The position numbers and the translations under genes are program-made. A DNA stretch of 61,474 bases from IMG/VR virus record IMGVR_UViG_3300028595_000010. One strand, given 5' to 3'. Below are positions 2,969 to 59,112 of the stretch, in pieces. The stretch's first letter is position 1; the number at the start of each line of letters is the position of its first letter. The notes beneath the pieces are model-generated. The model searched no databases and had not been told where the DNA came from. It was given only the letters and a program-made list of their open reading frames with translations. Source of the DNA: an uncultured virus (IMG/VR IMGVR_UViG_3300028595_000010) (taxonomy: Duplodnaviria > Heunggongvirae > Uroviricota > Caudoviricetes).

Positions 2969-3096
2969 TTGGATTTCTCCTTTTTTTGGCATTTGAGGTC
3001 TAGGATTGCTCACTTTGTGCGTGCAATGTTATCCTATTCCTTCACCCTATTATATATATAGAAATAGCGAATCCATCCAAACCTATAGGTTTATAT

Positions 3097-3462
3097 ATGC
3101 TCATTTCCGCTAAATATCTAAAATATCTATCAAAACCACTAAATCCTCCATATATCTCAGAACAGGATGTATTACAGGATGTTGAAAGTTATAATTGTAT
3201 GTTTGTAGACTATCCTGTAAGAAAAGGTGATGAATATGTGGAATTCCATAAAGAGGATGAAAGGAGCGATAGATTCTTCGCATTGAAGCTCCATATTGAT
3301 ACATATTTAAGAATGATCGAAAATGGAGAATATGAAATAAAGATACTAGAAGAAATCCAACCAACAAATCCACAGGTTCCAATTTTTGCATTTAAGAATA
3401 CTGTATGGGTATTCATCAAACATCTAGGAATGACATTTGAAAAAGTCCTACACAGATTTTGA
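3097..3462 (+). CDS. hypothetical protein
   Basis: ORF with an AGG RBS-like site. Confidence 0.6.
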   Translation: MLISAKYLKYLSKPLNPPYISEQDVLQDVESYNCMFVDYPVRKGDEYVEFHKEDERSDRFFALKLHIDTYLRMIENGEYEIKILEEIQPTNPQVPIFAFKNTVWVFIKHLGMTFEKVLHRF

Positions 3463-5990: not shown

Positions 5991-6001
5991 TATATATTTA
6001 G
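5991..6001 (-). promoter_or_regulatory. CTAAATATATA promoter-like motif (representative of 9 exact intergenic copies)
   Basis: Plus-strand TATATATTTAG at 5991, 8414, 11916, 15001, 17589, 25785, 28717, 31904, 32040; mostly just upstream of minus-strand genes. Confidence 0.75.
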
Positions 6002-12485: not shown

Positions 12486-13106
12486 ATGTCTATCCACAGC
12501 ATTCCCATTGAAGTTCTCTTTGAATCTTACATATTCAGTGACAAGACTGTTAGCTGCGACTTGTCAAAATGGGGAAGGGATAAGAATACTTTATTCATAG
12601 TTGGTCTTCCTGGATCTGGTAAGTCTACATTGGGACAAGCGATGGCAAAAAAATACAATGCGGAATATTATGGTCTAGATAAATTATGGATCGATGTAAT
12701 AAAAAAGGATCATCCAGATTTTGATCCTTGGAAAGATAAAAAAGACCCAATGGATCCAAGAACCTTTGACAGGAAGTCAATAGTTGTAATAAAGGATAAG
12801 ATGAAATCTTCTCCCAAACTAATCCTTGAGGGTGTTCAGATTGTAGAATACTGGTTACAGGAACCGTCATTCAGAAAAATGATTAGTCCATACCCATGTA
12901 TCATATTAGGAGAGTCTATTCTTAAATCAGGATGGAGATCTATAAAACGACAAATGAACAACAAGCCACCACCAGGAGAGGATGATTCATGGTGGCAACA
13001 TTTCAAATGGATGAGAAATTATAAATACTTCAATAGAGAACTTAATTATTTCAGAGAAGAGCGTCTTGCAGTTCCTGGCACAGAGGTGAAGGAATTTAAA
13101 GTATGA
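12486..13106 (+). CDS. P-loop (NMP-kinase-like) protein with IPxxILFE leader
   Basis: FIVGLPGSGKST Walker A; LILEG; leader MSIHSIPIEVLFE. Confidence 0.8.
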   Translation: MSIHSIPIEVLFESYIFSDKTVSCDLSKWGRDKNTLFIVGLPGSGKSTLGQAMAKKYNAEYYGLDKLWIDVIKKDHPDFDPWKDKKDPMDPRTFDRKSIVVIKDKMKSSPKLILEGVQIVEYWLQEPSFRKMISPYPCIILGESILKSGWRSIKRQMNNKPPPGEDDSWWQHFKWMRNYKYFNRELNYFREERLAVPGTEVKEFKV

Positions 13107-13429
13107 TACATACTATCCCTCTTGAAGTTCTCTTTGAGTTTACGGATAGAAGTAAACTTCCTTATCGCCGTAGTAGCAAATGTATTCTTACTATGCCAGA
13201 TGGGAAGATTGTGGCACGAATAAGTCACAAGAATAAATATGTGGTATTTCCTGGAGGAGGAGTCGATCCAGGAGAAACATTGGAACAGTCGGTGAAGAGA
13301 GAATGCTTGGAAGAGGCTGGAGCTATTATAGATGGCCGGATAAAAGTATTCAATGTATTCAGATTCGATTGGTGGGAAGGATGGGCAACCAATGATAAGA
13401 TGAGAAGAAGATATGAGAAACTCCACTAA
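13103..13429 (+). CDS. Nudix hydrolase with IPxxILFE leader, probably C-terminally truncated
   Basis: Nudix box PGGGVDPGETLEQSVKRECLEEAG; leader MIHTIPLEVLFE. Confidence 0.8.
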   Translation: MIHTIPLEVLFEFTDRSKLPYRRSSKCILTMPDGKIVARISHKNKYVVFPGGGVDPGETLEQSVKRECLEEAGAIIDGRIKVFNVFRFDWWEGWATNDKMRRRYEKLH

Positions 13430-13673: not shown

Positions 13674-14963
13674 CTATTCATCTTGATGAGTGACGGTTCG
13701 AGACTCGGATGATATCCCAACCCAGCATCCTTTTACAAATACTGTTTTCGGATTACCATACTCATCTCTCTTATACCGATCACTCTTCAGAATCCTTATG
13801 CACCATGTTCGATAATGGGGCCGTTTCGATGAAACAACAACATCAACATCATCTCTACTATTTTTATTTGCCTCCTTTTCATCCAAAGCGTTGATTCTGG
13901 AGATTTTTGCTTGGATGATTTTAGAAACAGGTAGTGTATATCCTGTTTCCAGTTTGTCCGGGAACGTCAGGACATAGATGTTAAGAGCTAATGTTAACCT
14001 GAAACTGTAGAACATTAGCTTGATTTTTTCTTCGTCGACCCGATAATCAGATTTACATCCGACCATCTCCTTGAACTCATCAAGAAGGAGATGGTTCTTC
14101 TTTGCATCCGTTATCTTATTCTGGACAGATCTATATAGATCTGTCCGCTTCACTTCGTCAGGAAGATCTTGTATCTCTTCCTCCATTTTGTTCAGATCAT
14201 GTGTCTCATTGGAAGCATCGTCACATATTTCAAGTATGTACTTTCTGAATCTCCGCAAGTCATTAAGCACATGAAAATCGGCTACTGGGAGAATCATGTA
14301 TCTGCCTTTACAATGATCGGATTCGAGCAAAATAGCCGACGGCAATGAGAAGCAGATCACTCCGATGTAAGCTCTAAGAAGATCCTCATCGATAGTTGAT
14401 CTGCTTCTACACAGACTGATGTATTTCTTAAGATCTAAGGAATCTTCTTCCTTAGATATTCCAACGAAATGAACATTGTATCCAGTCAATTCAATTCCAT
14501 CATAAACAATTCCCTTAGGTAAAGCCACAGAGTAGTGATTCCGATAAGGGATGGAGTATGCATCGGTGTAGTTGAACTTGGCATTCAACAATGTTCCTAC
14601 CAATTCCTTGCATTGAGGATAAAGTACATGATTGCCATGTTTTAACTGTTGCCATGAACCAAAGTCTCCAGCCGCTAGTAATGCGGTTGTAGACTTATCA
14701 TCCTTGACGGGGCTACCAGAAGTCAGAAACTCTGCATAGAGTGCCACATTCAAATCGATAGGGTTGTTGGAAGGGATATTCGAAAATATATCCCTAAATT
14801 TGAACAGTGACTTTGGAGGAACATATTCCTCCAAAATTCTGTTGTTGAAGAATGAGATTTCATTCTTATCGTTGGGTAGTTGTTTAAGAATCTCGACTCG
14901 CTTTACGCGGTTCTTTCTGTTCTTTCTGTTCTGGCGACGCTGGGCTTTAGTTTTCTTCATCAC
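13674..14963 (-). CDS. hypothetical phage protein
   Basis: 429 aa; basic N-term; C-term KRPHYR...VKGCWVG; flanked by the promoter motif and a terminator. Confidence 0.75.
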   Translation of the reverse strand: MMKKTKAQRRQNRKNRKNRVKRVEILKQLPNDKNEISFFNNRILEEYVPPKSLFKFRDIFSNIPSNNPIDLNVALYAEFLTSGSPVKDDKSTTALLAAGDFGSWQQLKHGNHVLYPQCKELVGTLLNAKFNYTDAYSIPYRNHYSVALPKGIVYDGIELTGYNVHFVGISKEEDSLDLKKYISLCRSRSTIDEDLLRAYIGVICFSLPSAILLESDHCKGRYMILPVADFHVLNDLRRFRKYILEICDDASNETHDLNKMEEEIQDLPDEVKRTDLYRSVQNKITDAKKNHLLLDEFKEMVGCKSDYRVDEEKIKLMFYSFRLTLALNIYVLTFPDKLETGYTLPVSKIIQAKISRINALDEKEANKNSRDDVDVVVSSKRPHYRTWCIRILKSDRYKRDEYGNPKTVFVKGCWVGISSESRTVTHQDE

Positions 14964-14988
14964 GAAATCTCCGGAATTTAAGTTGTGG

Positions 14989-15090
14989 TATTCAAATAGG
15001 TATATATTTAGTATCCACTATCCTATCCCAAGCACCGCAGGTAACACCATAATAAGAACAAATATAAAATCTTACGGAGTTACCATAATG
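14989..15090. repeat. about 100-bp divergent-promoter module, copy 2
   Basis: Near-identical to 11904-12008. Confidence 0.85.
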
Positions 15091-15684
15091 GCCATTCATC
15101 AAATTCCTCCAGAAGTTCTTTTCGAATTTTCATTACCATGGAAAAAGAAAAAGAACAAAGAAAATCCTGCATACAAAATAAGCTATAATCCAATCGACTT
15201 CGATAAGTATCTACAGTTCACATTCAAGGCCTGCAAAGACCTAAAGAAATGTATAAAAGGATTCGGCAATCAAGTTAACATGAAAAATGATATGGATGTG
15301 TTTTATTCAACAAGTAAGATTTCAATATACGGTGCAATAGGGATAGACGTATGGACTCCAGTCAATTTAAAGAAAGCAGATGAAGTCTACAAAGAAACTG
15401 GAAACAGTATGGATTTTCATCAGACCTTACACGATATCCATTATGAGATCTTCAATAAATGCTTCATGGGTGTTGCCAAGAAATATAAGATGCAGAAGAT
15501 AGGGACTACAACTACCATCGCTCTCCTAAATAAGAAAAAAGAAATGATCATCGAATTCACTCTAGAATCAGATCATAAAGCAAGAGATGGTGCTCTATCA
15601 ATTATGTGGTATGGTAAACATGATGGAGACGATGATAACTATAGTAAGTCGTCTAAGATAGAAAAAGTTCTATCCAGAATTTAA
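15088..15684 (+). CDS. IPxxILFE-leader protein
   Basis: Start reassigned to MAIHQIPPEVLFE. Confidence 0.8.
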   Translation: MAIHQIPPEVLFEFSLPWKKKKNKENPAYKISYNPIDFDKYLQFTFKACKDLKKCIKGFGNQVNMKNDMDVFYSTSKISIYGAIGIDVWTPVNLKKADEVYKETGNSMDFHQTLHDIHYEIFNKCFMGVAKKYKMQKIGTTTTIALLNKKKEMIIEFTLESDHKARDGALSIMWYGKHDGDDDNYSKSSKIEKVLSRI

Positions 15685-15906: not shown

Positions 15907-15958
15907 TCTAAGGAAAAAAAGAGCTAAGTAAGTAACACTTAGCTCGGCTCTTTAATAG

Positions 15959-16390
15959 TTACGTCCCAAGAGTCTTCTTCCGTTTTGCGGCTGACTCTAA
16001 AGCTACCATGAGAGTAGCCTGGTTCGTAACTGATTTTGCATGAGCTGCTTTTTGCTCATTGGTGAGGTTTCCGACATCCACATTCATCTGCCGACGATGT
16101 GCTCTATACATCTTACGAATAGCACATCGAAAGGATTTGTCATTGTAGTCGACAGCTTCAGAATCCGTAAGAATTCTTAAGCCATTGTCTTCACTCTTAA
16201 TCGTTGGAATCCTACCAGTTTCCTTGTAGATATCCCTTTCGAGTCGAGCCTTCAATGCCATTAAGATGAAACTATATTCCCTGTCAGTCGGAGGTTCATC
16301 GAGTTTGAGTTCCTCAAGAATTGTCGACTTAGGAATGTAAGAACCTTTGGTCTTTGGAAAACCAGCAACTGCAGTTGTGGTTTTGGCCAT
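15959..16390 (-). CDS. 143-aa accessory protein coupled to the RAMP-like gene
   Basis: TAATG stop/start overlap at 16388-16392; GGAGG RBS; ends at a terminator near 15914-15952. Confidence 0.8.
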   Translation of the reverse strand: MAKTTTAVAGFPKTKGSYIPKSTILEELKLDEPPTDREYSFILMALKARLERDIYKETGRIPTIKSEDNGLRILTDSEAVDYNDKSFRCAIRKMYRAHRRQMNVDVGNLTNEQKAAHAKSVTNQATLMVALESAAKRKKTLGT

Positions 16391-16992
16391 TACGCCACCT
16401 CCAGAATCGTGAATCTTCCATGTTTTGGACGCCAGGTTCCCATTCCACACTGCTGCCCACAGAGCTCAATGCTCTGCTTCACAGATGCGATATCCATGAT
16501 GTCAGTATTGATAGACATTTTGAATTTCAAAGACCACACTGGGAAGTATGGACGAGTCCTAATTACAGAAGAGGTTCCTCCGACTTTGCAATCAGTGACC
16601 AGTCTGTAGTTCGGATCAGCGTGGAGCTCGGACAAGGATTTTCCTTTATCCGGGAAGATCAGTTCTGCATCTTCTTCGACGAAACACGCAGCCGGGAATT
16701 GCTTTCCCATTTTGATCTTCTTGGATCCTGAGCGAATGGCGGCTTCGATATGCAAAGACGGAAGAATAATCTTTGCATCATCGATGATTGCACCAGGATG
16801 AATTTCTGGATTGGTATACAGATATGCATACCATTCGGTGTCGGAAATGTCCTGATGGATCTCATCAGTCTTATTCCGAATCTTGGTCAGTTCCTTGAGC
16901 GCCTTAGTCCAGTCGTTCAAGGGGTTCTTGGTTGTGCCACTGTGAATGATCAGAGGACTGATCCCTTCGATGTGGATGTTCAGTGTTTCCAT
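16390..16992 (-). CDS. Cas7/RAMP-like RNA-binding protein (200 aa), candidate guide-RNA effector
   Basis: N-term IHIEGISPLIIHS; LPSLHIEAAI; RTRPYFPVWSLKF; C-term Gly-rich loop GQQCGMGTWRPKHGRF; AGGA RBS before METLN. Confidence 0.7.
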   Translation of the reverse strand: METLNIHIEGISPLIIHSGTTKNPLNDWTKALKELTKIRNKTDEIHQDISDTEWYAYLYTNPEIHPGAIIDDAKIILPSLHIEAAIRSGSKKIKMGKQFPAACFVEEDAELIFPDKGKSLSELHADPNYRLVTDCKVGGTSSVIRTRPYFPVWSLKFKMSINTDIMDIASVKQSIELCGQQCGMGTWRPKHGRFTILEVA

Positions 16993-17020
16993 TGTGGGGT
17001 TTCCTATCTTGTTGTGAAGG

Positions 17021-17080
17021 GGGTTACCGGATGGCGAACAGAAAACCTTTCCATTCATCTCTATTCCTATCCGGTAACCC
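17021..17080 (-). ncRNA. pentamer-repeat unit A (6 pentamers within a 12-bp inverted repeat)
   Basis: Minus strand ccGGA taGGA atAGA gaTGA atGGA aaGGT; flanks GGGTTACCGGAT/ATCCGGTAACCC. Confidence 0.55.
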
Positions 17081-17103
17081 ACGTTCATTAAAGAAATTAT
17101 TAT

Positions 17104-17190
17104 AAAAGGACCGTTTCGATAAGATAGAGAGTATGTCCATTCCATTCCTCTCCTGTCATATCAGCTCATATCAGCTCTAATCCGGTCCTC
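17104..17190 (-). ncRNA. pentamer-repeat unit B (11 pentamers)
   Basis: Pentamers at 17136-17190; AGGACCG/CGGTCCT closing stem; U-tract. Confidence 0.65.
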
Positions 17191-17198
17191 AAAATTTT

Positions 17199-17294
17199 AA
17201 AAGAGCCCCTCCGTAGAAAGGCTCGGAATGCACCTCCGGGCAGATCATCTCCCGTGACTTCCTGTCCTATCACTTCTGCTCCAATCCGCGCACT
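17199..17294 (-). ncRNA. pentamer-repeat unit C (13 pentamers plus 3' hairpin)
   Basis: Pentamers at 17230-17294; GAGCC/GGCTC hairpin and U-tract. Confidence 0.65.
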
Positions 17295-17326
17295 CCCAAA
17301 ATTCAGTATCGATCCTATTAAAAGCT

Positions 17327-17418
17327 AAAAGAGTCCTTTCGAAAAAGGACTCATGTCTTCCACTCATGTCATCACCATTCTCATCCAATCCTTTCTTCTC
17401 CTTTCATGACCAAACCAA
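17327..17418 (-). ncRNA. pentamer-repeat unit D (12 pentamers plus 3' hairpin)
   Basis: Pentamers at 17359-17418; GAGTCCTTT/AAAGGACTC hairpin and U-tract. Confidence 0.65.
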
Positions 17419-17428
17419 GGGAAAATTT

Positions 17429-17532
17429 AAAAGAGGATGTCAAAATTAATTGGCATCCTCTAACCTTTCATTTCATCTCCAGTCCATTCATCGCATCTCT
17501 AATCATCTCATCTCAGCTCCGTTCAACTCCAA
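17429..17532 (-). ncRNA. pentamer-repeat unit E (14 pentamers plus 3' hairpin)
   Basis: Pentamers at 17463-17532; 12-bp hairpin at 17432-17461 and U-tract. Confidence 0.65.
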
Positions 17533-17588
17533 TGAGTAATTAGGAATACTCTTTTTATGAGTGAATGTTTCAGGAGATATCAATTAGA

Positions 17589-17599
17589 TATATATTTAG
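17589..17599 (-). promoter_or_regulatory. CTAAATATATA motif upstream of the pentamer array/RAMP locus
   Basis: Exact copy of the motif about 55 nt upstream of unit E. Confidence 0.7.
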
Positions 17600-18050
17600 A
17601 TTCCTCCTAAGTATTCAAGGAACAAGTTAACGATCTGTAGCCATTTAAAATGGATCCCCCTATACATCCAAAAAAATTCCCACAAAAATATTTCCGACTC
17701 CTCGATCTAAAGTAGATCTCTCCCTATACCAAAAAGGAATTTCCTAAAAGTCCATTAGGAATTGTTTTGAAATAGATAAGAAATTTGCTAGAGAAGTAAG
17801 AAAAAGCGATTTCCCTATAGAGATCAAAATGGTATTATAATAGATTCTCTGGTTTAACCTTAACTTAAACGAACTACCAAACTGTATCCAATCAAGATTT
17901 TTCACAAGATACATTAAGTTCCAACTTGGCTCCTACATAGAGAACAATTGATTTAAGGAAAATTTACCAAAAAAAGACTATCATGGTATTCTCCCAGTAT
18001 CCACTTGAATAGCCAAATAGCCCAAATCCGGCAAAATACCGAATTTGGAC

Positions 18051-18395
18051 TTATTTGGCAAATGAAGAGATTCTAATCTTATACTGATTTTTATCCCAAT
18101 TGAAGTATAAGGCATAATACCTATATGGAGTTCTAAGGAAATATTTACCATTTAAAGTATTTAAGGGTAAGTTATGCCATCCTAAATATTCCCCTTGTGT
18201 AATATTAGCTGTAATCACTTTAGGATTCATATGACAATAAATATAATCCTTAAATTTCTCATTCCATGTGAATGAGTAGAACTCCACTAAATCACTATAA
18301 GAATAAAGCAGATATAGATCTAATACCATTTTAGAACTTAAGAAATAACTTAAGTTCCATCCATTTACAGATACGTGTTTTTTGGGAGAATTCAT
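18051..18395 (-). CDS. hypothetical protein
   Basis: Perfect AAGGAGGTGA RBS. Confidence 0.7.
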   Translation of the reverse strand: MNSPKKHVSVNGWNLSYFLSSKMVLDLYLLYSYSDLVEFYSFTWNEKFKDYIYCHMNPKVITANITQGEYLGWHNLPLNTLNGKYFLRTPYRYYALYFNWDKNQYKIRISSFAK

Positions 18396-18449
18396 GTAAT
18401 CACCTCCTTAGATCATTATGGGCAGCGATTTTTTCTTAATTCTTAATTT

Positions 18450-19370
18450 GCTCGAAATGATAATATTTTACATGTTCGATGTATTCCCTATAGAGTTAGA
18501 CAATTTGCACTCGAAATGATAATATTTTACATGTTTGGTCTTTGCATGAGTATAGCAAACAGTAGAATTTAGTTATAGATTATCCTTTTTTGCTATACGT
18601 ATGAATAAGATTAGTATCTTAAATGAATTCAAGTTATGCTTTGTTGGAACTTTGTTGGAACTTTTAGTATCTTAAATGAATTCAAGTTATACTTTGTTGG
18701 AACTTAAGTGATTATTTGGTAAAAATTGGTTTAAGATACTGATCTTAAATGAGTCTTATTGAAAAATCCATTGTGGGCAGTGAGCAATGTCCATAGAATT
18801 TTGCTCTAATTTTCTACTTCTTGAGCCTGTTGAGAGACTTATTGGAACTTAAATTGGATTTGTGTTAAAATCTATCGGACTTTCCCCTAGGGAATCAATG
18901 AACGGGAAACTAAGTGAGATTATTTTTGGCTTCTTAGTTGGATTTATGTTGGAATTGTGTAGAAATTCCGTTAGATCTTTAGAAGAAGCCTAACTTTAGC
19001 CTTCTAAAGTTCCATAAAAGATTTCCAAAATTAAGATACTATTCTTTAACCGTCCAATAAAGTCTCATCTAAATTCCAATGAAACACCTTCTAAGTCTCA
19101 TCTAATCCTTATCTAAATTCCAATGAAACACCTTCTAAGTCTCATCTAAATTCCAATAAAACAATCTTATAAGGACTTACTTTAGCATTCCATAAAAGAT
19201 TTCCAAAATTAAGATACTATTCTTTAAACTGTTTTATTATTTTACATTTAAATTCCGTCTATAATCCAATACTATCCCCTAATTCCTTTCTAATAGATCT
19301 TAGTCTATCATCTTGTAATAGAATCCTTTCCTCCAATATACTATTTATATTTTTAGTATCTTATCCTAAT
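18450..19370. repeat. non-coding direct/inverted repeat region, candidate replication origin
   Basis: 26-bp DR (18451/18510), about 41-bp DR (18611/18664), 40-bp DR (19010/19188), TAAGTCTCATCTAA-type repeats at 19058-19160, central IR 18977-19009. Confidence 0.7.
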
Positions 19371-19535: not shown

Positions 19536-19853
19536 TTATGGGATCTTGTTATCTGTAATTTGAGAACTTGCAATTTGTTTTCTTCGATTTGTATCTATTG
19601 TAATATCACAATACCAAGTTTTCTTAATGATGCTATCTGAATATACTAAACATAAATTCACTATACTGTGAATCTTATCATTAAGAAATAATAAATATGA
19701 AATAGTAACTGTTAAGTGATTAGATTCTAGCCATTGTTGTATATCTTCTATTGTAACGTAATCACTATATGAAGTAGTACGTTTGAACAAAAATGTTTCT
19801 TGTTTGAGTATTTCGTAATAGAAATAGATTTCCTGTGAAGTTGGTAGGTTCAT
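19536..19853 (-). CDS. small paralog-array protein
   Basis: MNLPTSQEIYF...WLESNHLTV. Confidence 0.65.
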   Translation of the reverse strand: MNLPTSQEIYFYYEILKQETFLFKRTTSYSDYVTIEDIQQWLESNHLTVTISYLLFLNDKIHSIVNLCLVYSDSIIKKTWYCDITIDTNRRKQIASSQITDNKIP

Positions 19854-19899
19854 GTGAAGGTTCTTGTGAAGTTGAAAACTTTTAGTATCTTATTTTGGC

Positions 19900-20184
19900 T
19901 CATTTTTTATGTTTCTGTAGTTCTTCAAAGATAACTTTGTCTATCTTATTATTAGTATCTAAAGTAATAGTATGATGAAAGTAAGAGCTAGAAACATTCA
20001 CACATATGTCTATATCAAATATTCCTGGATGTTTGAAATGGGGATTAGAGCAATTTATCAATTTTGATTCTATTGTAAAGTCTTTAAACTCTTCTATATA
20101 AATACAGTATCTAGTGGGATTGACATTGCGTTGTGACTTTAACATTGCTAATATTTTGATTTCTATTGCTTTAGTTAATCTCAT
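19900..20184 (-). CDS. small paralog-array protein
   Basis: MRLTKAIEIKIL...YIEE. Confidence 0.7.
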   Translation of the reverse strand: MRLTKAIEIKILAMLKSQRNVNPTRYCIYIEEFKDFTIESKLINCSNPHFKHPGIFDIDICVNVSSSYFHHTITLDTNNKIDKVIFEELQKHKK

Positions 20185-20480
20185 GTTGAAGTAAAGTAGA
20201 ATGTGTTAGAGTAATATTGATCGTCTTTTGATGTCCATTGTAATTTAATTAAATTTGTTGTCCAGTTTAATTTTGTTATACTAGATGTTGCTGTAATTGA
20301 TTCTTTATATGAAACTTCAAATCTATTTTCTTCTATTAATTCAATTATTTCTGGTAACTGTAAGAGACTCCATTTGCAGGCAGCAGTTTTGTTTATAGCA
20401 ACACTGTAGGATATTCCGTGTTTGCAACTTTTGAGCCTCCAATATAATAAATAGATATCTGCTGCTTTACTTAGCTTCAT
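20181..20480 (-). CDS. small paralog-array protein
   Basis: MKLSKAADIYLL...LIEENRFEV. Confidence 0.7.
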   Translation of the reverse strand: MKLSKAADIYLLYWRLKSCKHGISYSVAINKTAACKWSLLQLPEIIELIEENRFEVSYKESITATSSITKLNWTTNLIKLQWTSKDDQYYSNTFYFTST

Positions 20481-20763
20481 TTCTTTGTTTGAATTCCTTT
20501 AGATAATTAACTCTTGATATTATAATCTTGTGTGCGAGAAATGGTTTTTTGTCTGAGTATAGTAAATAGCTAAATTTGATATATGGATAATCATCAAATG
20601 ATAATTGGATTATATGTAGATTGTCTTCTTCTATTATCTGTATTAAATAATCTATATCTATTCTTTCATGACTAACACCATTAGTGAGAACAGTTAAAGA
20701 TCTTTTTTCTTTAATGAAATAGACATACAAAAAGTAAATATGGAATGCTTTATGTAGCCTCAT
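20467..20763 (-). CDS. small paralog-array protein
   Basis: MRLHKAFHIYFL...IIEEDNLHI. Confidence 0.7.
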   Translation of the reverse strand: MRLHKAFHIYFLYVYFIKEKRSLTVLTNGVSHERIDIDYLIQIIEEDNLHIIQLSFDDYPYIKFSYLLYSDKKPFLAHKIIISRVNYLKEFKQRNEAK

Positions 20764-20811
20764 AATTTAATTGAAAAACCTCCTACTTATTATGATAAGT
20801 ATTCTCATTCA

Positions 20812-21090
20812 TCATTTAAAAAGTGATATTACTGAAATGACATCTGTAGTTAATACCTTAACGTCTGCCTGTACTAAGTGGAATCTAATACATTGATAGA
20901 ATGGATCAGAACTCCGTTCAATTTCTAATTTATCACTTTCAATGTACTGGGTTACTTTATAGATGTCTAATGTCTGACTGAACGATTTACGATAGAACAT
21001 AATGTAGAAGGGTAAATATTGAGAGTCTCTAAACCATTTCCAGAGGATCTTAATTTCTGCTGCTTTACAGACCTTGTGTCTATAACTCAT
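20812..21090 (-). CDS. small paralog-array protein
   Basis: KAAEIKILW...YIESDKLEI. Confidence 0.7.
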   Translation of the reverse strand: MSYRHKVCKAAEIKILWKWFRDSQYLPFYIMFYRKSFSQTLDIYKVTQYIESDKLEIERSSDPFYQCIRFHLVQADVKVLTTDVISVISLFK

Positions 21091-58744: not shown

Positions 58745-58984
58745 TTACTGGTTTTCTAGAATTACCTCAAAGTCTTCTATCTTATCTTTTTCAGGATGAT
58801 CATTCCCTGGATTCTTAAGCCGCTCATCAAAGATGATAATTTCGTCTTTATCTTTAAATGATTCTCTAAATTGAGAATGACATTCTGCACACCAAATATC
58901 ATCTGTTAACATTTCTTCATTCCGCTCATGTACAATCCAATACCAAAACCTCCAAATCGTTCTACCACACACACAACATTTCAT
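58745..58984 (-). CDS. small Zn-finger protein
   Basis: MKCCVC...CAEC; GGAGG RBS; start reassigned out of the tRNA. Confidence 0.6.
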   Translation of the reverse strand: MKCCVCGRTIWRFWYWIVHERNEEMLTDDIWCAECHSQFRESFKDKDEIIIFDERLKNPGNDHPEKDKIEDFEVILENQ

Positions 58985-59022
58985 TATTAAAATTCCTCCA
59001 ATGAAATGAGTTAGTAATAACT

Positions 59023-59112
59023 TGGCGGAGAGCATGGGACTTGAACCCACATATGTATTACTACATAACCTGATTTCCAATCAGGCGCCTTAACCAATTC
59101 AGCCAACTCTCC
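59023..59112 (-). tRNA. tRNA-Ser (GGA)
   Basis: cctga-TT GGA AA-tcagg; long variable arm; CCA. Confidence 0.9.

Follow-up and report, generated by a model that had tools for sequence, protein, structure and literature searches.

A 61,474-nucleotide (nt) stretch of DNA from an uncultured virus (IMG/VR record IMGVR_UViG_3300028595_000010), referred to below in its entirety as the window, harbors a compact minus-strand operon in which a promoter-like motif is followed by five tracts of five-base units (pentamers), a gene encoding a 200-amino-acid (aa) protein (P0001), a gene encoding a 143-aa protein (P0002) and a terminator-like hairpin (Table 1). The two genes are coupled, i.e., the ATG of the 143-aa open reading frame (ORF) shares one base, the last of the stop codon, with the 200-aa ORF. 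An earlier note on this DNA, made from the sequence without database searches, had described the same layout on the minus strand, and all peptide motifs that it quoted are contained in the 200-aa ORF (16992-16390). On the basis of homology, fold, array anatomy, operon layout and the co-occurrence of arrays and accessory (vap) genes with relatives of P0001, we consider the locus to be a phage-encoded VIPR (Viral Interference Programmable Repeat) system, with a probability of about 0.8.

Table 1. Features of the VIPR locus in the window; units are candidate vrRNAs
Feature	Positions	Strand	Basis or remark
Promoter-like motif CTAAATATATA	17589..17599	minus	about 60 nt 5' of the first pentamer
vrRNA unit 1: 14 pentamers (17530-17461), tail hairpin (17460-17433), U-run	17429..17530	minus	phasing and predicted fold
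vrRNA unit 2: 12 pentamers (17416-17357), terminator-like hairpin (17352-17331), U-run	17327..17416	minus	phasing and predicted fold
vrRNA unit 3: 14 pentamers (17297-17228; one off-pattern), hairpin (17224-17203), U-run	17200..17297	minus	fold z-score -4.26
vrRNA unit 4: 11 pentamers (17188-17134), U-run	17102..17190	minus	fold z-score -3.64
Unit 5: 6 pentamers (17072-17043) inside a 12-bp hairpin, without U-run	17021..17080	minus	fold z-score -4.07
vipr gene, 200 aa (P0001), RAMP fold, G-loop GMGTWRPKHGRF	16390..16992	minus	PDB 36pp_D, phrog_4652, AlphaFold2, Foldseek
vap-like accessory gene, 143 aa (P0002)	15959..16390	minus	homologs downstream of Vipr genes
Terminator-like hairpin (10 pairs, 15945-15921) and T-run, operon end	15914..15945	minus	hairpin prediction

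VIPR is an RNA-guided DNA silencer related to CRISPR (clustered regularly interspaced short palindromic repeats) systems, which was described in two preprints of April 2026 (10.64898/2026.04.26.720920 and 10.64898/2026.04.26.720927); these, and a further one of October 2026 (10.64898/2026.10.21.760802), are cited here from the passages of their text that were available. According to the April preprints, Vipr is a minimal RAMP protein that is mostly phage-borne, and the vrRNAs, which are composed of 9-16 tandem GGY/NN units and a structured tail, co-purify with it; in Escherichia phage SUSP1, the pentamer tracts were sequenced as RNAs and co-purify with Vipr. Electron cryomicroscopy (cryo-EM) of the SUSP1 complex revealed one protomer per unit, where G1 is read by H17 and D177, G2 is read by R138 and W178, a pocket for Y3 (E71, M72, C173, T175 and R179) excludes purines, and K33 holds the skipped target base. 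Pairing to double-stranded DNA is through the NN bases, with every third target base skipped, and the binding represses transcription; satellites and rival phages are the natural targets. Seven VIPR types and six vap genes were named in the same preprints, and the methods of 10.64898/2026.04.26.720920 also name NNNGG, YNNNG and NNNNG repeats. The October preprint (10.64898/2026.10.21.760802), which distinguishes 21 clusters, lists further units that depart from the canonical one, WGT/NN and TGH/NN among them, next to Vipr-like folds. Judging from these texts, both VIPR and non-canonical repeats are already known, and a variant of the fixed triplet is not unprecedented.

The Vipr Protein

P0001 aligns over residues 1-196 with PDB chain 36pp_D, the "SUSP1 Vipr protein" (expectation value, E, 5.7e-20), which bears out, as a full-length match, the likeness to VIPR that the earlier note had suggested. 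The protein also matches phrog_4652 (E 8.5e-39), a family of Vipr genes in Felixounavirus, Pseudomonas and Gordonia phages. Among 1.84 billion representative proteins that were searched, 1940 are related at E <= 0.001, and the closest of these, apart from the protein itself, is 44% identical.

An AlphaFold2 model based on an alignment of 40 homologs has a predicted local distance difference test (pLDDT) score of 97 and a predicted template-modeling (TM) score of 0.90; a model made without an alignment was unusable (pLDDT 32.7). When the former was compared with the PDB using Foldseek, 71 matches were obtained at E <= 0.001 (best E 6.4e-6), and every one of those listed is a subunit of a CRISPR effector complex (type III, IV or VII), for the most part a Csm3/Cas7-type RAMP. 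The RAMP/Cas7 fold that had been proposed from the glycine-rich loop is thereby found in the model as well.

Other searches were less informative. Pfam and NCBIfam gave nothing for P0001 or P0002 beyond one sub-threshold match to MCM_N, a word-indexed protein search with P0001 returned the window's own protein only, and no match was found in IMG/VR either by a related-locus search with P0001 or P0004 alone or with a strict G-loop pattern. The public gene call for the vipr gene (P0003; 251 aa, 16390-17145, minus strand) starts 51 codons too far upstream and crosses units 4 and 5; we consider it over-extended because the homologs align from its residue 52.

The Pentamer Arrays

When the 57 pentamers of the five tracts are pooled, position 1 is G in 29, T in 22, A in 6 and C in none, position 2 is G in 56 of the 57, and position 3 is A in 47 of the 57, while the information content at positions 4 and 5 is 0.05 and 0.17 bits, respectively. 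As counted by hand from the pentamer listing, the triplet class (G/T/A)GA comprises 46 of the 57 pentamers and the class GGY comprises five. The variant code (G/T/A)GA that had been suggested from the sequence accounts in this way for most of the units, and it has a precedent in the WGT/NN and TGH/NN units reported in the available text of 10.64898/2026.10.21.760802. The longest phased run is composed of 14 units, compared to at most 9 in 100 shuffles, and the autocorrelation over 17600-16993 has peaks at lags 5, 10 and 15. No other phased DGA run is present on either strand of the 61-kb window.

Each of units 1-4 ends in a predicted hairpin and a U-run. In unit 4 the closing structure is a predicted long-range helix, formed by 17190-17183 and 17113-17106, which encloses the entire tract of repeats, and the U-run comes after it. 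The hairpins may be terminators, processing sites or structured guide tails. Unit 5, which is found directly upstream of the vipr start, is shorter than units 1-4 and of a different form; it could be either a leader structure or a vrRNA that is short or has become worn. No Rfam family was detected at threshold over the locus, and no ribozyme.

Several observations weigh against the assignment of these tracts to VIPR. The canonical GGY triplet does not describe them (the passages available from the describing papers permit a "related consensus"), and the pattern GG[C/T]NN fits 5 of the 57 pentamers, such that published callers would miss these arrays. Furthermore, the tails are hairpins and U-runs that share no common sequence, unlike the conserved pseudoknot tail reported for SUSP1. 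Finally, the stretch is present in no listed RNA run, and both transcription and the unit boundaries are predicted from the sequence. It is present in three DNA runs labelled marine sediment metagenome, where it shows 1-2 differences and the arrays are invariant.

Related Loci and the Accessory Gene

The association of arrays with Vipr relatives was examined at 100 loci that encode a full-length relative, of which 3 are from phage records, 80 from IMG/VR and 17 from metagenomes; the set was not de-replicated. A pentamer array on the strand of the gene was found at 84 of the 100 loci, at one locus an array was found on the opposite strand only (as assigned heuristically), and at 15 there was none. 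The arrays are placed downstream only at 56 loci, upstream only at 15 and on both sides at 14. Among the phage records, Gordonia phage MakoManhole, Pseudomonas phage Medea1 and Escherichia phage Andreotti each harbor a vipr-like gene, an adjoining gene for about 150-180 aa and same-strand GGY/NN arrays. In locus L084, whose Vipr is the closest relative (43-44% identity), the layout is that of the window, i.e., five upstream arrays, the vipr gene and a P0002-like gene, and the units read (T/A/G)G(T/C)/NN.

These data also bear on an explanation in which the pentamer tracts are not RNAs but act at the level of DNA, for example as iterons bound by a protein or as bent DNA, or in which their periodicity arose by chance next to a RAMP-like gene. 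This explanation agrees with the lack of the stretch from the listed RNA runs, but it is difficult to reconcile with a run length beyond that of all 100 shuffles, with the comparable same-strand arrays that accompany the relatives, with the hairpin and U-run at the end of each of units 1-4 (although the unit 4 helix encloses its whole tract) and with the identification, according to the April preprints, of the SUSP1 tracts as RNAs co-purified with Vipr. We regard it as hardly credible.

The accessory protein P0002 is 38% identical to the product of the gene downstream of the closest Vipr relative (155 aa, L084; E 3e-26). Homologs of P0002 are found directly downstream of Vipr at 11 of the 72 loci that have a downstream ORF, and downstream of Vipr at 71 of 96 loci in a set defined below by a Thr in the G-loop (75 of these 96 extend at least 450 nt downstream). 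The relation to phrog_5926, the family of the SUSP1-type neighbour, is weak (E 0.022; hhalign probability 34% over 118 collinear columns). In the ESM Atlas, P0002 falls among viral hypothetical proteins (TM score 0.76-0.78); a weak likeness of its N-terminus to winged-helix DNA-binding domains (TM score 0.33-0.39) is a lead only. As judged from sequence and position, P0002 is a vap-like accessory gene.

Two observations were made on more distant relatives. In a clade at 21-27% identity (L117, L141, L149 and relatives, all from IMG/VR), which also has Thr in the G-loop, the arrays are located downstream, the fixed triplet is Y-T-C or Y-G-C, and some arrays on the gene's strand lack any G in the fixed triplet. 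These arrays end in a conserved hairpin tail, and a P0002-like vap gene that overlaps vipr precedes them. Locus L205, on a cyanobacterial contig from a metagenome-assembled genome, encodes a Vipr with a G-loop Thr, downstream of which lie arrays of TG(T/C)/NN units; these are separated, at 3063-3121 on the plus strand, by a Hammerhead_II ribozyme (39.9 bits; cut-off 37). Hammerhead-interspersed arrays are named for VIPR types I and V in the available text of 10.64898/2026.04.26.720920.

The Scaffold Triplet and the Residues That May Read It

To compare the scaffold with the protein, the alignment of P0001 and 36pp_D was laid onto the contacts given in the available text of the SUSP1 cryo-EM preprint. 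Residues H17, K33, R147 (SUSP1 R138), C182, W187 (SUSP1 W178) and R188 are conserved. Changes from SUSP1 to P0001 are found at D177, which is replaced by T186, and at E71/M72, which are replaced by L80/H81. The residue located two positions before D177 is M184 in P0001; it is V175 in the aligned PDB chain and T175 in the preprint. The invariant G at position 2 of the pentamer agrees with the conserved Arg147 and Trp187, the relaxed first base fits the Thr186 that stands in place of SUSP1 Asp177, and the A at position 3 coincides with the pocket changes Leu80/His81 and Met184.

A pattern with Thr at this G-loop position retrieved 104 loci (98 from IMG/VR and 6 from genomes), in 96 of which a Vipr-like protein is encoded. 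Covariation was analyzed among 82 de-replicated Vipr proteins, where loci with at least 18 pooled pentamers were counted. The majority base at position 1 is G in 45 of 45 Asp-type loci; in the seven Thr-type loci it is in each case T (5) or C (2). In a quick, midpoint-rooted FastTree phylogeny, Thr appears in at least three places, namely in P0001 with L084 (support 0.85), in L205, which groups with the Asp-type L032 (support 0.985), and in the distant clade (support 1.0).

From these data we tentatively propose, at less than even odds, that the fixed triplet of a vrRNA is read by a few Vipr residues that can be exchanged and that the resulting private scaffolds insulate a lineage from the solo or decoy vrRNAs of its rivals. 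In such a scheme, the identity of base 1 may depend on the equivalent of Asp177, where Asp would select G and Thr would select U or another pyrimidine, and a pocket formed by helix 1 and the G-loop (here His81 and Met184) may set base 3 (here A). If the proposal is correct, the Vipr of a lineage would load its own guides only, which would constitute a layer of insulation in the phage-satellite conflict described for SUSP1. An Asp/Thr rule, if true, would explain the origin of non-canonical scaffolds and offer a handle for building Vipr-guide pairs without cross-loading. D177 and the G-loop are not mentioned in the available text of 10.64898/2026.10.21.760802, nor are D177 variants discussed in that of the cryo-EM preprint on SUSP1 Vipr; what the present locus adds is this rule together with a clean example of a purine at scaffold position 3.

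There are also observations that speak against a residue code of this kind. The D/E-type and the Thr-type sets were each fetched with a pattern that fixes the residue in question, and the detector found arrays in 20 of the 96 Thr-type loci. The partial Thr-type locus L189 (IMG/VR, 630 nt) has GGC/NN arrays and is an exception to the pattern; a Thr by itself is thus compatible with G at position 1. Likewise, A at position 3 occurs without a shared residue, i.e., with Ser/Gly/Ala in the pocket of L028 and with Arg/Val/Leu in that of L074 (A or C). An observation against the VIPR assignment itself is that the D177A variant of SUSP1 Vipr abolishes silencing, as stated in the preprint text available, and that P0001 lacks that Asp.

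The last observation would also be consistent with a locus that is a decayed or inactive VIPR remnant, whose arrays would have drifted away from GGY and whose Vipr would have lost the Asp needed to read the first G, such that no guiding takes place. The small number of GGY units (5 of 57) and the fifth unit, which is short and buried in a hairpin, point in the same direction. However, the two coupled ORFs are both intact, the three metagenome runs contain nearly the same sequence of the locus, and a G at position 2 in 56 of 57 units combined with an A at position 3 in 47 of 57 constitutes a new consensus rather than drift. In addition, a Thr-type Vipr is not rare (96 of the 104 loci fetched encode one), and those of their loci that have visible arrays display a regular non-G base at position 1. 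We therefore consider decay to be very unlikely and retain the assignment to an intact VIPR.

Proposed Mechanism and Targets

By analogy with the SUSP1 complex, a VIPR at this locus might function as follows. Transcription from CTAAATATATA at 17599-17589 would yield four full vrRNAs and one short one, followed by a Vipr-Vap mRNA. Each vrRNA, once processed, would be a run of five-base steps closed by a hairpin and a U-tract, on which Vipr protomers would align, one per step, to form a filament. Each protomer would hold the fixed triplet (G/T/A)-G-A and leave the two variable bases exposed. A single protomer for each pentamer, with the constant triplet as the handle, had been proposed in the earlier note, and it is here suggested by the SUSP1 cryo-EM data as given in the available text. 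The variable bases would jointly read a target, presumably DNA rather than RNA, where every third base is skipped, and the binding would block transcription of a competing mobile element.

Candidate targets were sought by pairing the variable bases under the one-base-skip rule and comparing the scores with those of permuted guides. The best match of any guide is that of vr1, the guide of unit 1, to the phage itself, where 22 of 28 informative bases match at 58786-58746 on the minus strand. The matching segment lies at the end of a small Cys-rich ORF (58745-59080), in frame with its final 13 codons and its stop codon, and this ORF is located just upstream of the tail-fibre gene. One in 300 permuted guides scored as high. 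Because the match, at 79%, is below the 80% cut-off used in the VIPR preprints, as far as their available text states it, and because four guides were tested, it is treated as a lead. The same preprints (10.64898/2026.04.26.720920 and 10.64898/2026.04.26.720927) report, in the passages available, lower scores for self-matches than for matches to rivals; the vr1 match would therefore be explained equally well by the homologous gene of a rival phage.

For vr2-vr4 the matches within the window were no better than those of permuted guides. No guide scored above decoys in 468 kb of fetched loci, the four guides of L084 had no match in the window, and exact scans of IMG/VR gave 0 matches for vr1 pentamers 4-14, vr2 pentamers 3-12 and the whole of vr4. 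The locus may silence competing elements, as the earlier note considered plausible, by extension from other VIPR systems; the searches gave no natural target.

The self-match leads to the question of whether Vipr and the vrRNAs could form a working complex with a readout unlike that of SUSP1, such as an RNA target, another skip rule or regulation of the phage's own genes. A scaffold triplet and three pocket residues that differ from SUSP1 would be compatible with such a readout, as would the finding that the best one-base-skip match is to the phage itself at a score equalled by one of 300 permuted guides. On the other hand, this match falls short of the cut-off, was the best of four guides and would serve equally well for the homologous gene of a rival, and K33, which holds the skipped base, is conserved. 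A different readout is thus unlikely, although less so than decay of the locus, and the SUSP1-like VIPR is the reading that we prefer.

VIPR has been known for months, and GGY-type systems are the only ones tested so far. In this setting the locus adds a compact, intact VIPR from an uncultured marine-sediment phage, which combines a purine at scaffold position 3 with a mixed first base, and it illustrates that systems of this kind escape callers that are limited to GG[C/T]NN.

Promoter-like Motif and Genomic Context

The motif CTAAATATATA is found in nine exact copies in the window, exclusively on the minus strand, and the VIPR locus has a single copy, ahead of unit 1. With at most one mismatch there are 12 copies compared to 3.76 expected, a number that is attained by none of 100 shuffles. 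The exact sites span 5991-32050 (minus strand; ends at 6001, 8424, 11926, 15011, 17599, 25795, 28727, 31914 and 32050), and a TTGA-like element is often found a few bases after the motif. Most of the other exact copies are followed, about 25-60 nt downstream, by a ribosome-binding site and a start codon, and the motif is probably the promoter consensus of this phage, as judged from its sequence and placement.

Just upstream of the VIPR locus, all four TATAGGGRR sites of the window are located within about 840 nt (17656-18492, minus strand), and each of the three sites in 17656-17819 is followed by a short palindrome. The total of such sites is not above that expected by chance (20 of 100 shuffles attain four).

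The window is phage DNA, as seen from a 1974-aa collagen-repeat tail fibre, an exonuclease, glycosyltransferases and seven tRNAs, and it is a fragment of a large phage. A PHROG scan of 76 ORFs of the window revealed no Cas-named family, and an Rfam scan of the window revealed tRNAs only; the five-base units are the sole repeats in the locus, and no CRISPR array was seen. Both scans agree with the earlier observation, made from the letters alone, that no cas1/cas2 or CRISPR repeat is seen in the window, and a viral location without either is what has been described for VIPR.

Two further features of the window were observed. Three otherwise different plus-strand ORFs (12486-13106, 13103-13429 and 14764-15684) share the motif "IH.IP.EVLFE", which is N-terminal in two of them and located about 110 residues from a TTG start in the third; one of the ORFs has a NUDIX-like core. 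Such a motif could be a tag common to the N-termini of these proteins, or else a recombination module. In addition, five tandem small ORFs (92-105 aa) at 19536-21090 on the minus strand have similar N-termini of the M.L.KA..I..L type and no PHROG match, and they look like a paralogous gene array.

Comparison with Known Systems

Among the systems described in the available preprint passages, the locus is most readily compared with type II VIPR, i.e., that of Escherichia phage SUSP1 and of a Pseudomonas fulva prophage. It shares with this type the full-length Vipr homology, a two-gene vipr-vap operon and same-strand flanking arrays of about 11-14 five-base units in a phage, and with SUSP1 also the G2 contacts (Arg and Trp) and the skip-base Lys. 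It differs from SUSP1 in the scaffold, which is (G/T/A)GA instead of GGY, in the G-loop Thr that replaces Asp177, and in the position of the arrays, which are all upstream here and distributed as one upstream and three downstream in SUSP1. Its Vap protein is related to the SUSP1-type family distantly at most, as seen from the phrog_5926 comparison above.

With the non-canonical VIPR loci of the October preprint (10.64898/2026.10.21.760802) the locus has in common a five-base period and a non-GGY triplet beside a Vipr-like fold, and the WGT/NN and TGH/NN units given there resemble those of L084 and of the window. Compared with these examples, as far as the text passages describe them, position 1 in the window is split between G, T and A, and position 3 is A in 47 of 57 units. 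The hammerhead-type locus L205 encodes a Vipr that is 38% identical to P0001 and also has the G-loop Thr, and its TG(T/C)/NN units are of a related kind; the hammerhead ribozyme is found in L205 and not in the window, and the L205 Vipr groups apart from P0001 in the tree.

The more distant relation is that to the RAMPs of class 1 CRISPR systems (Csm3/Cas7 of type III, Csf of type IV, and type VII), which have the same RRM core, thumb and C-terminal Gly-rich loop. Here, the sequence identity is 9-17%, and neither a CRISPR repeat nor a cas gene was seen. The step along the guide differs as well: in VIPR it is 5 nt, of which three bases are sequestered, whereas in class 1 CRISPR complexes it is 6 nt, with one base flipped.

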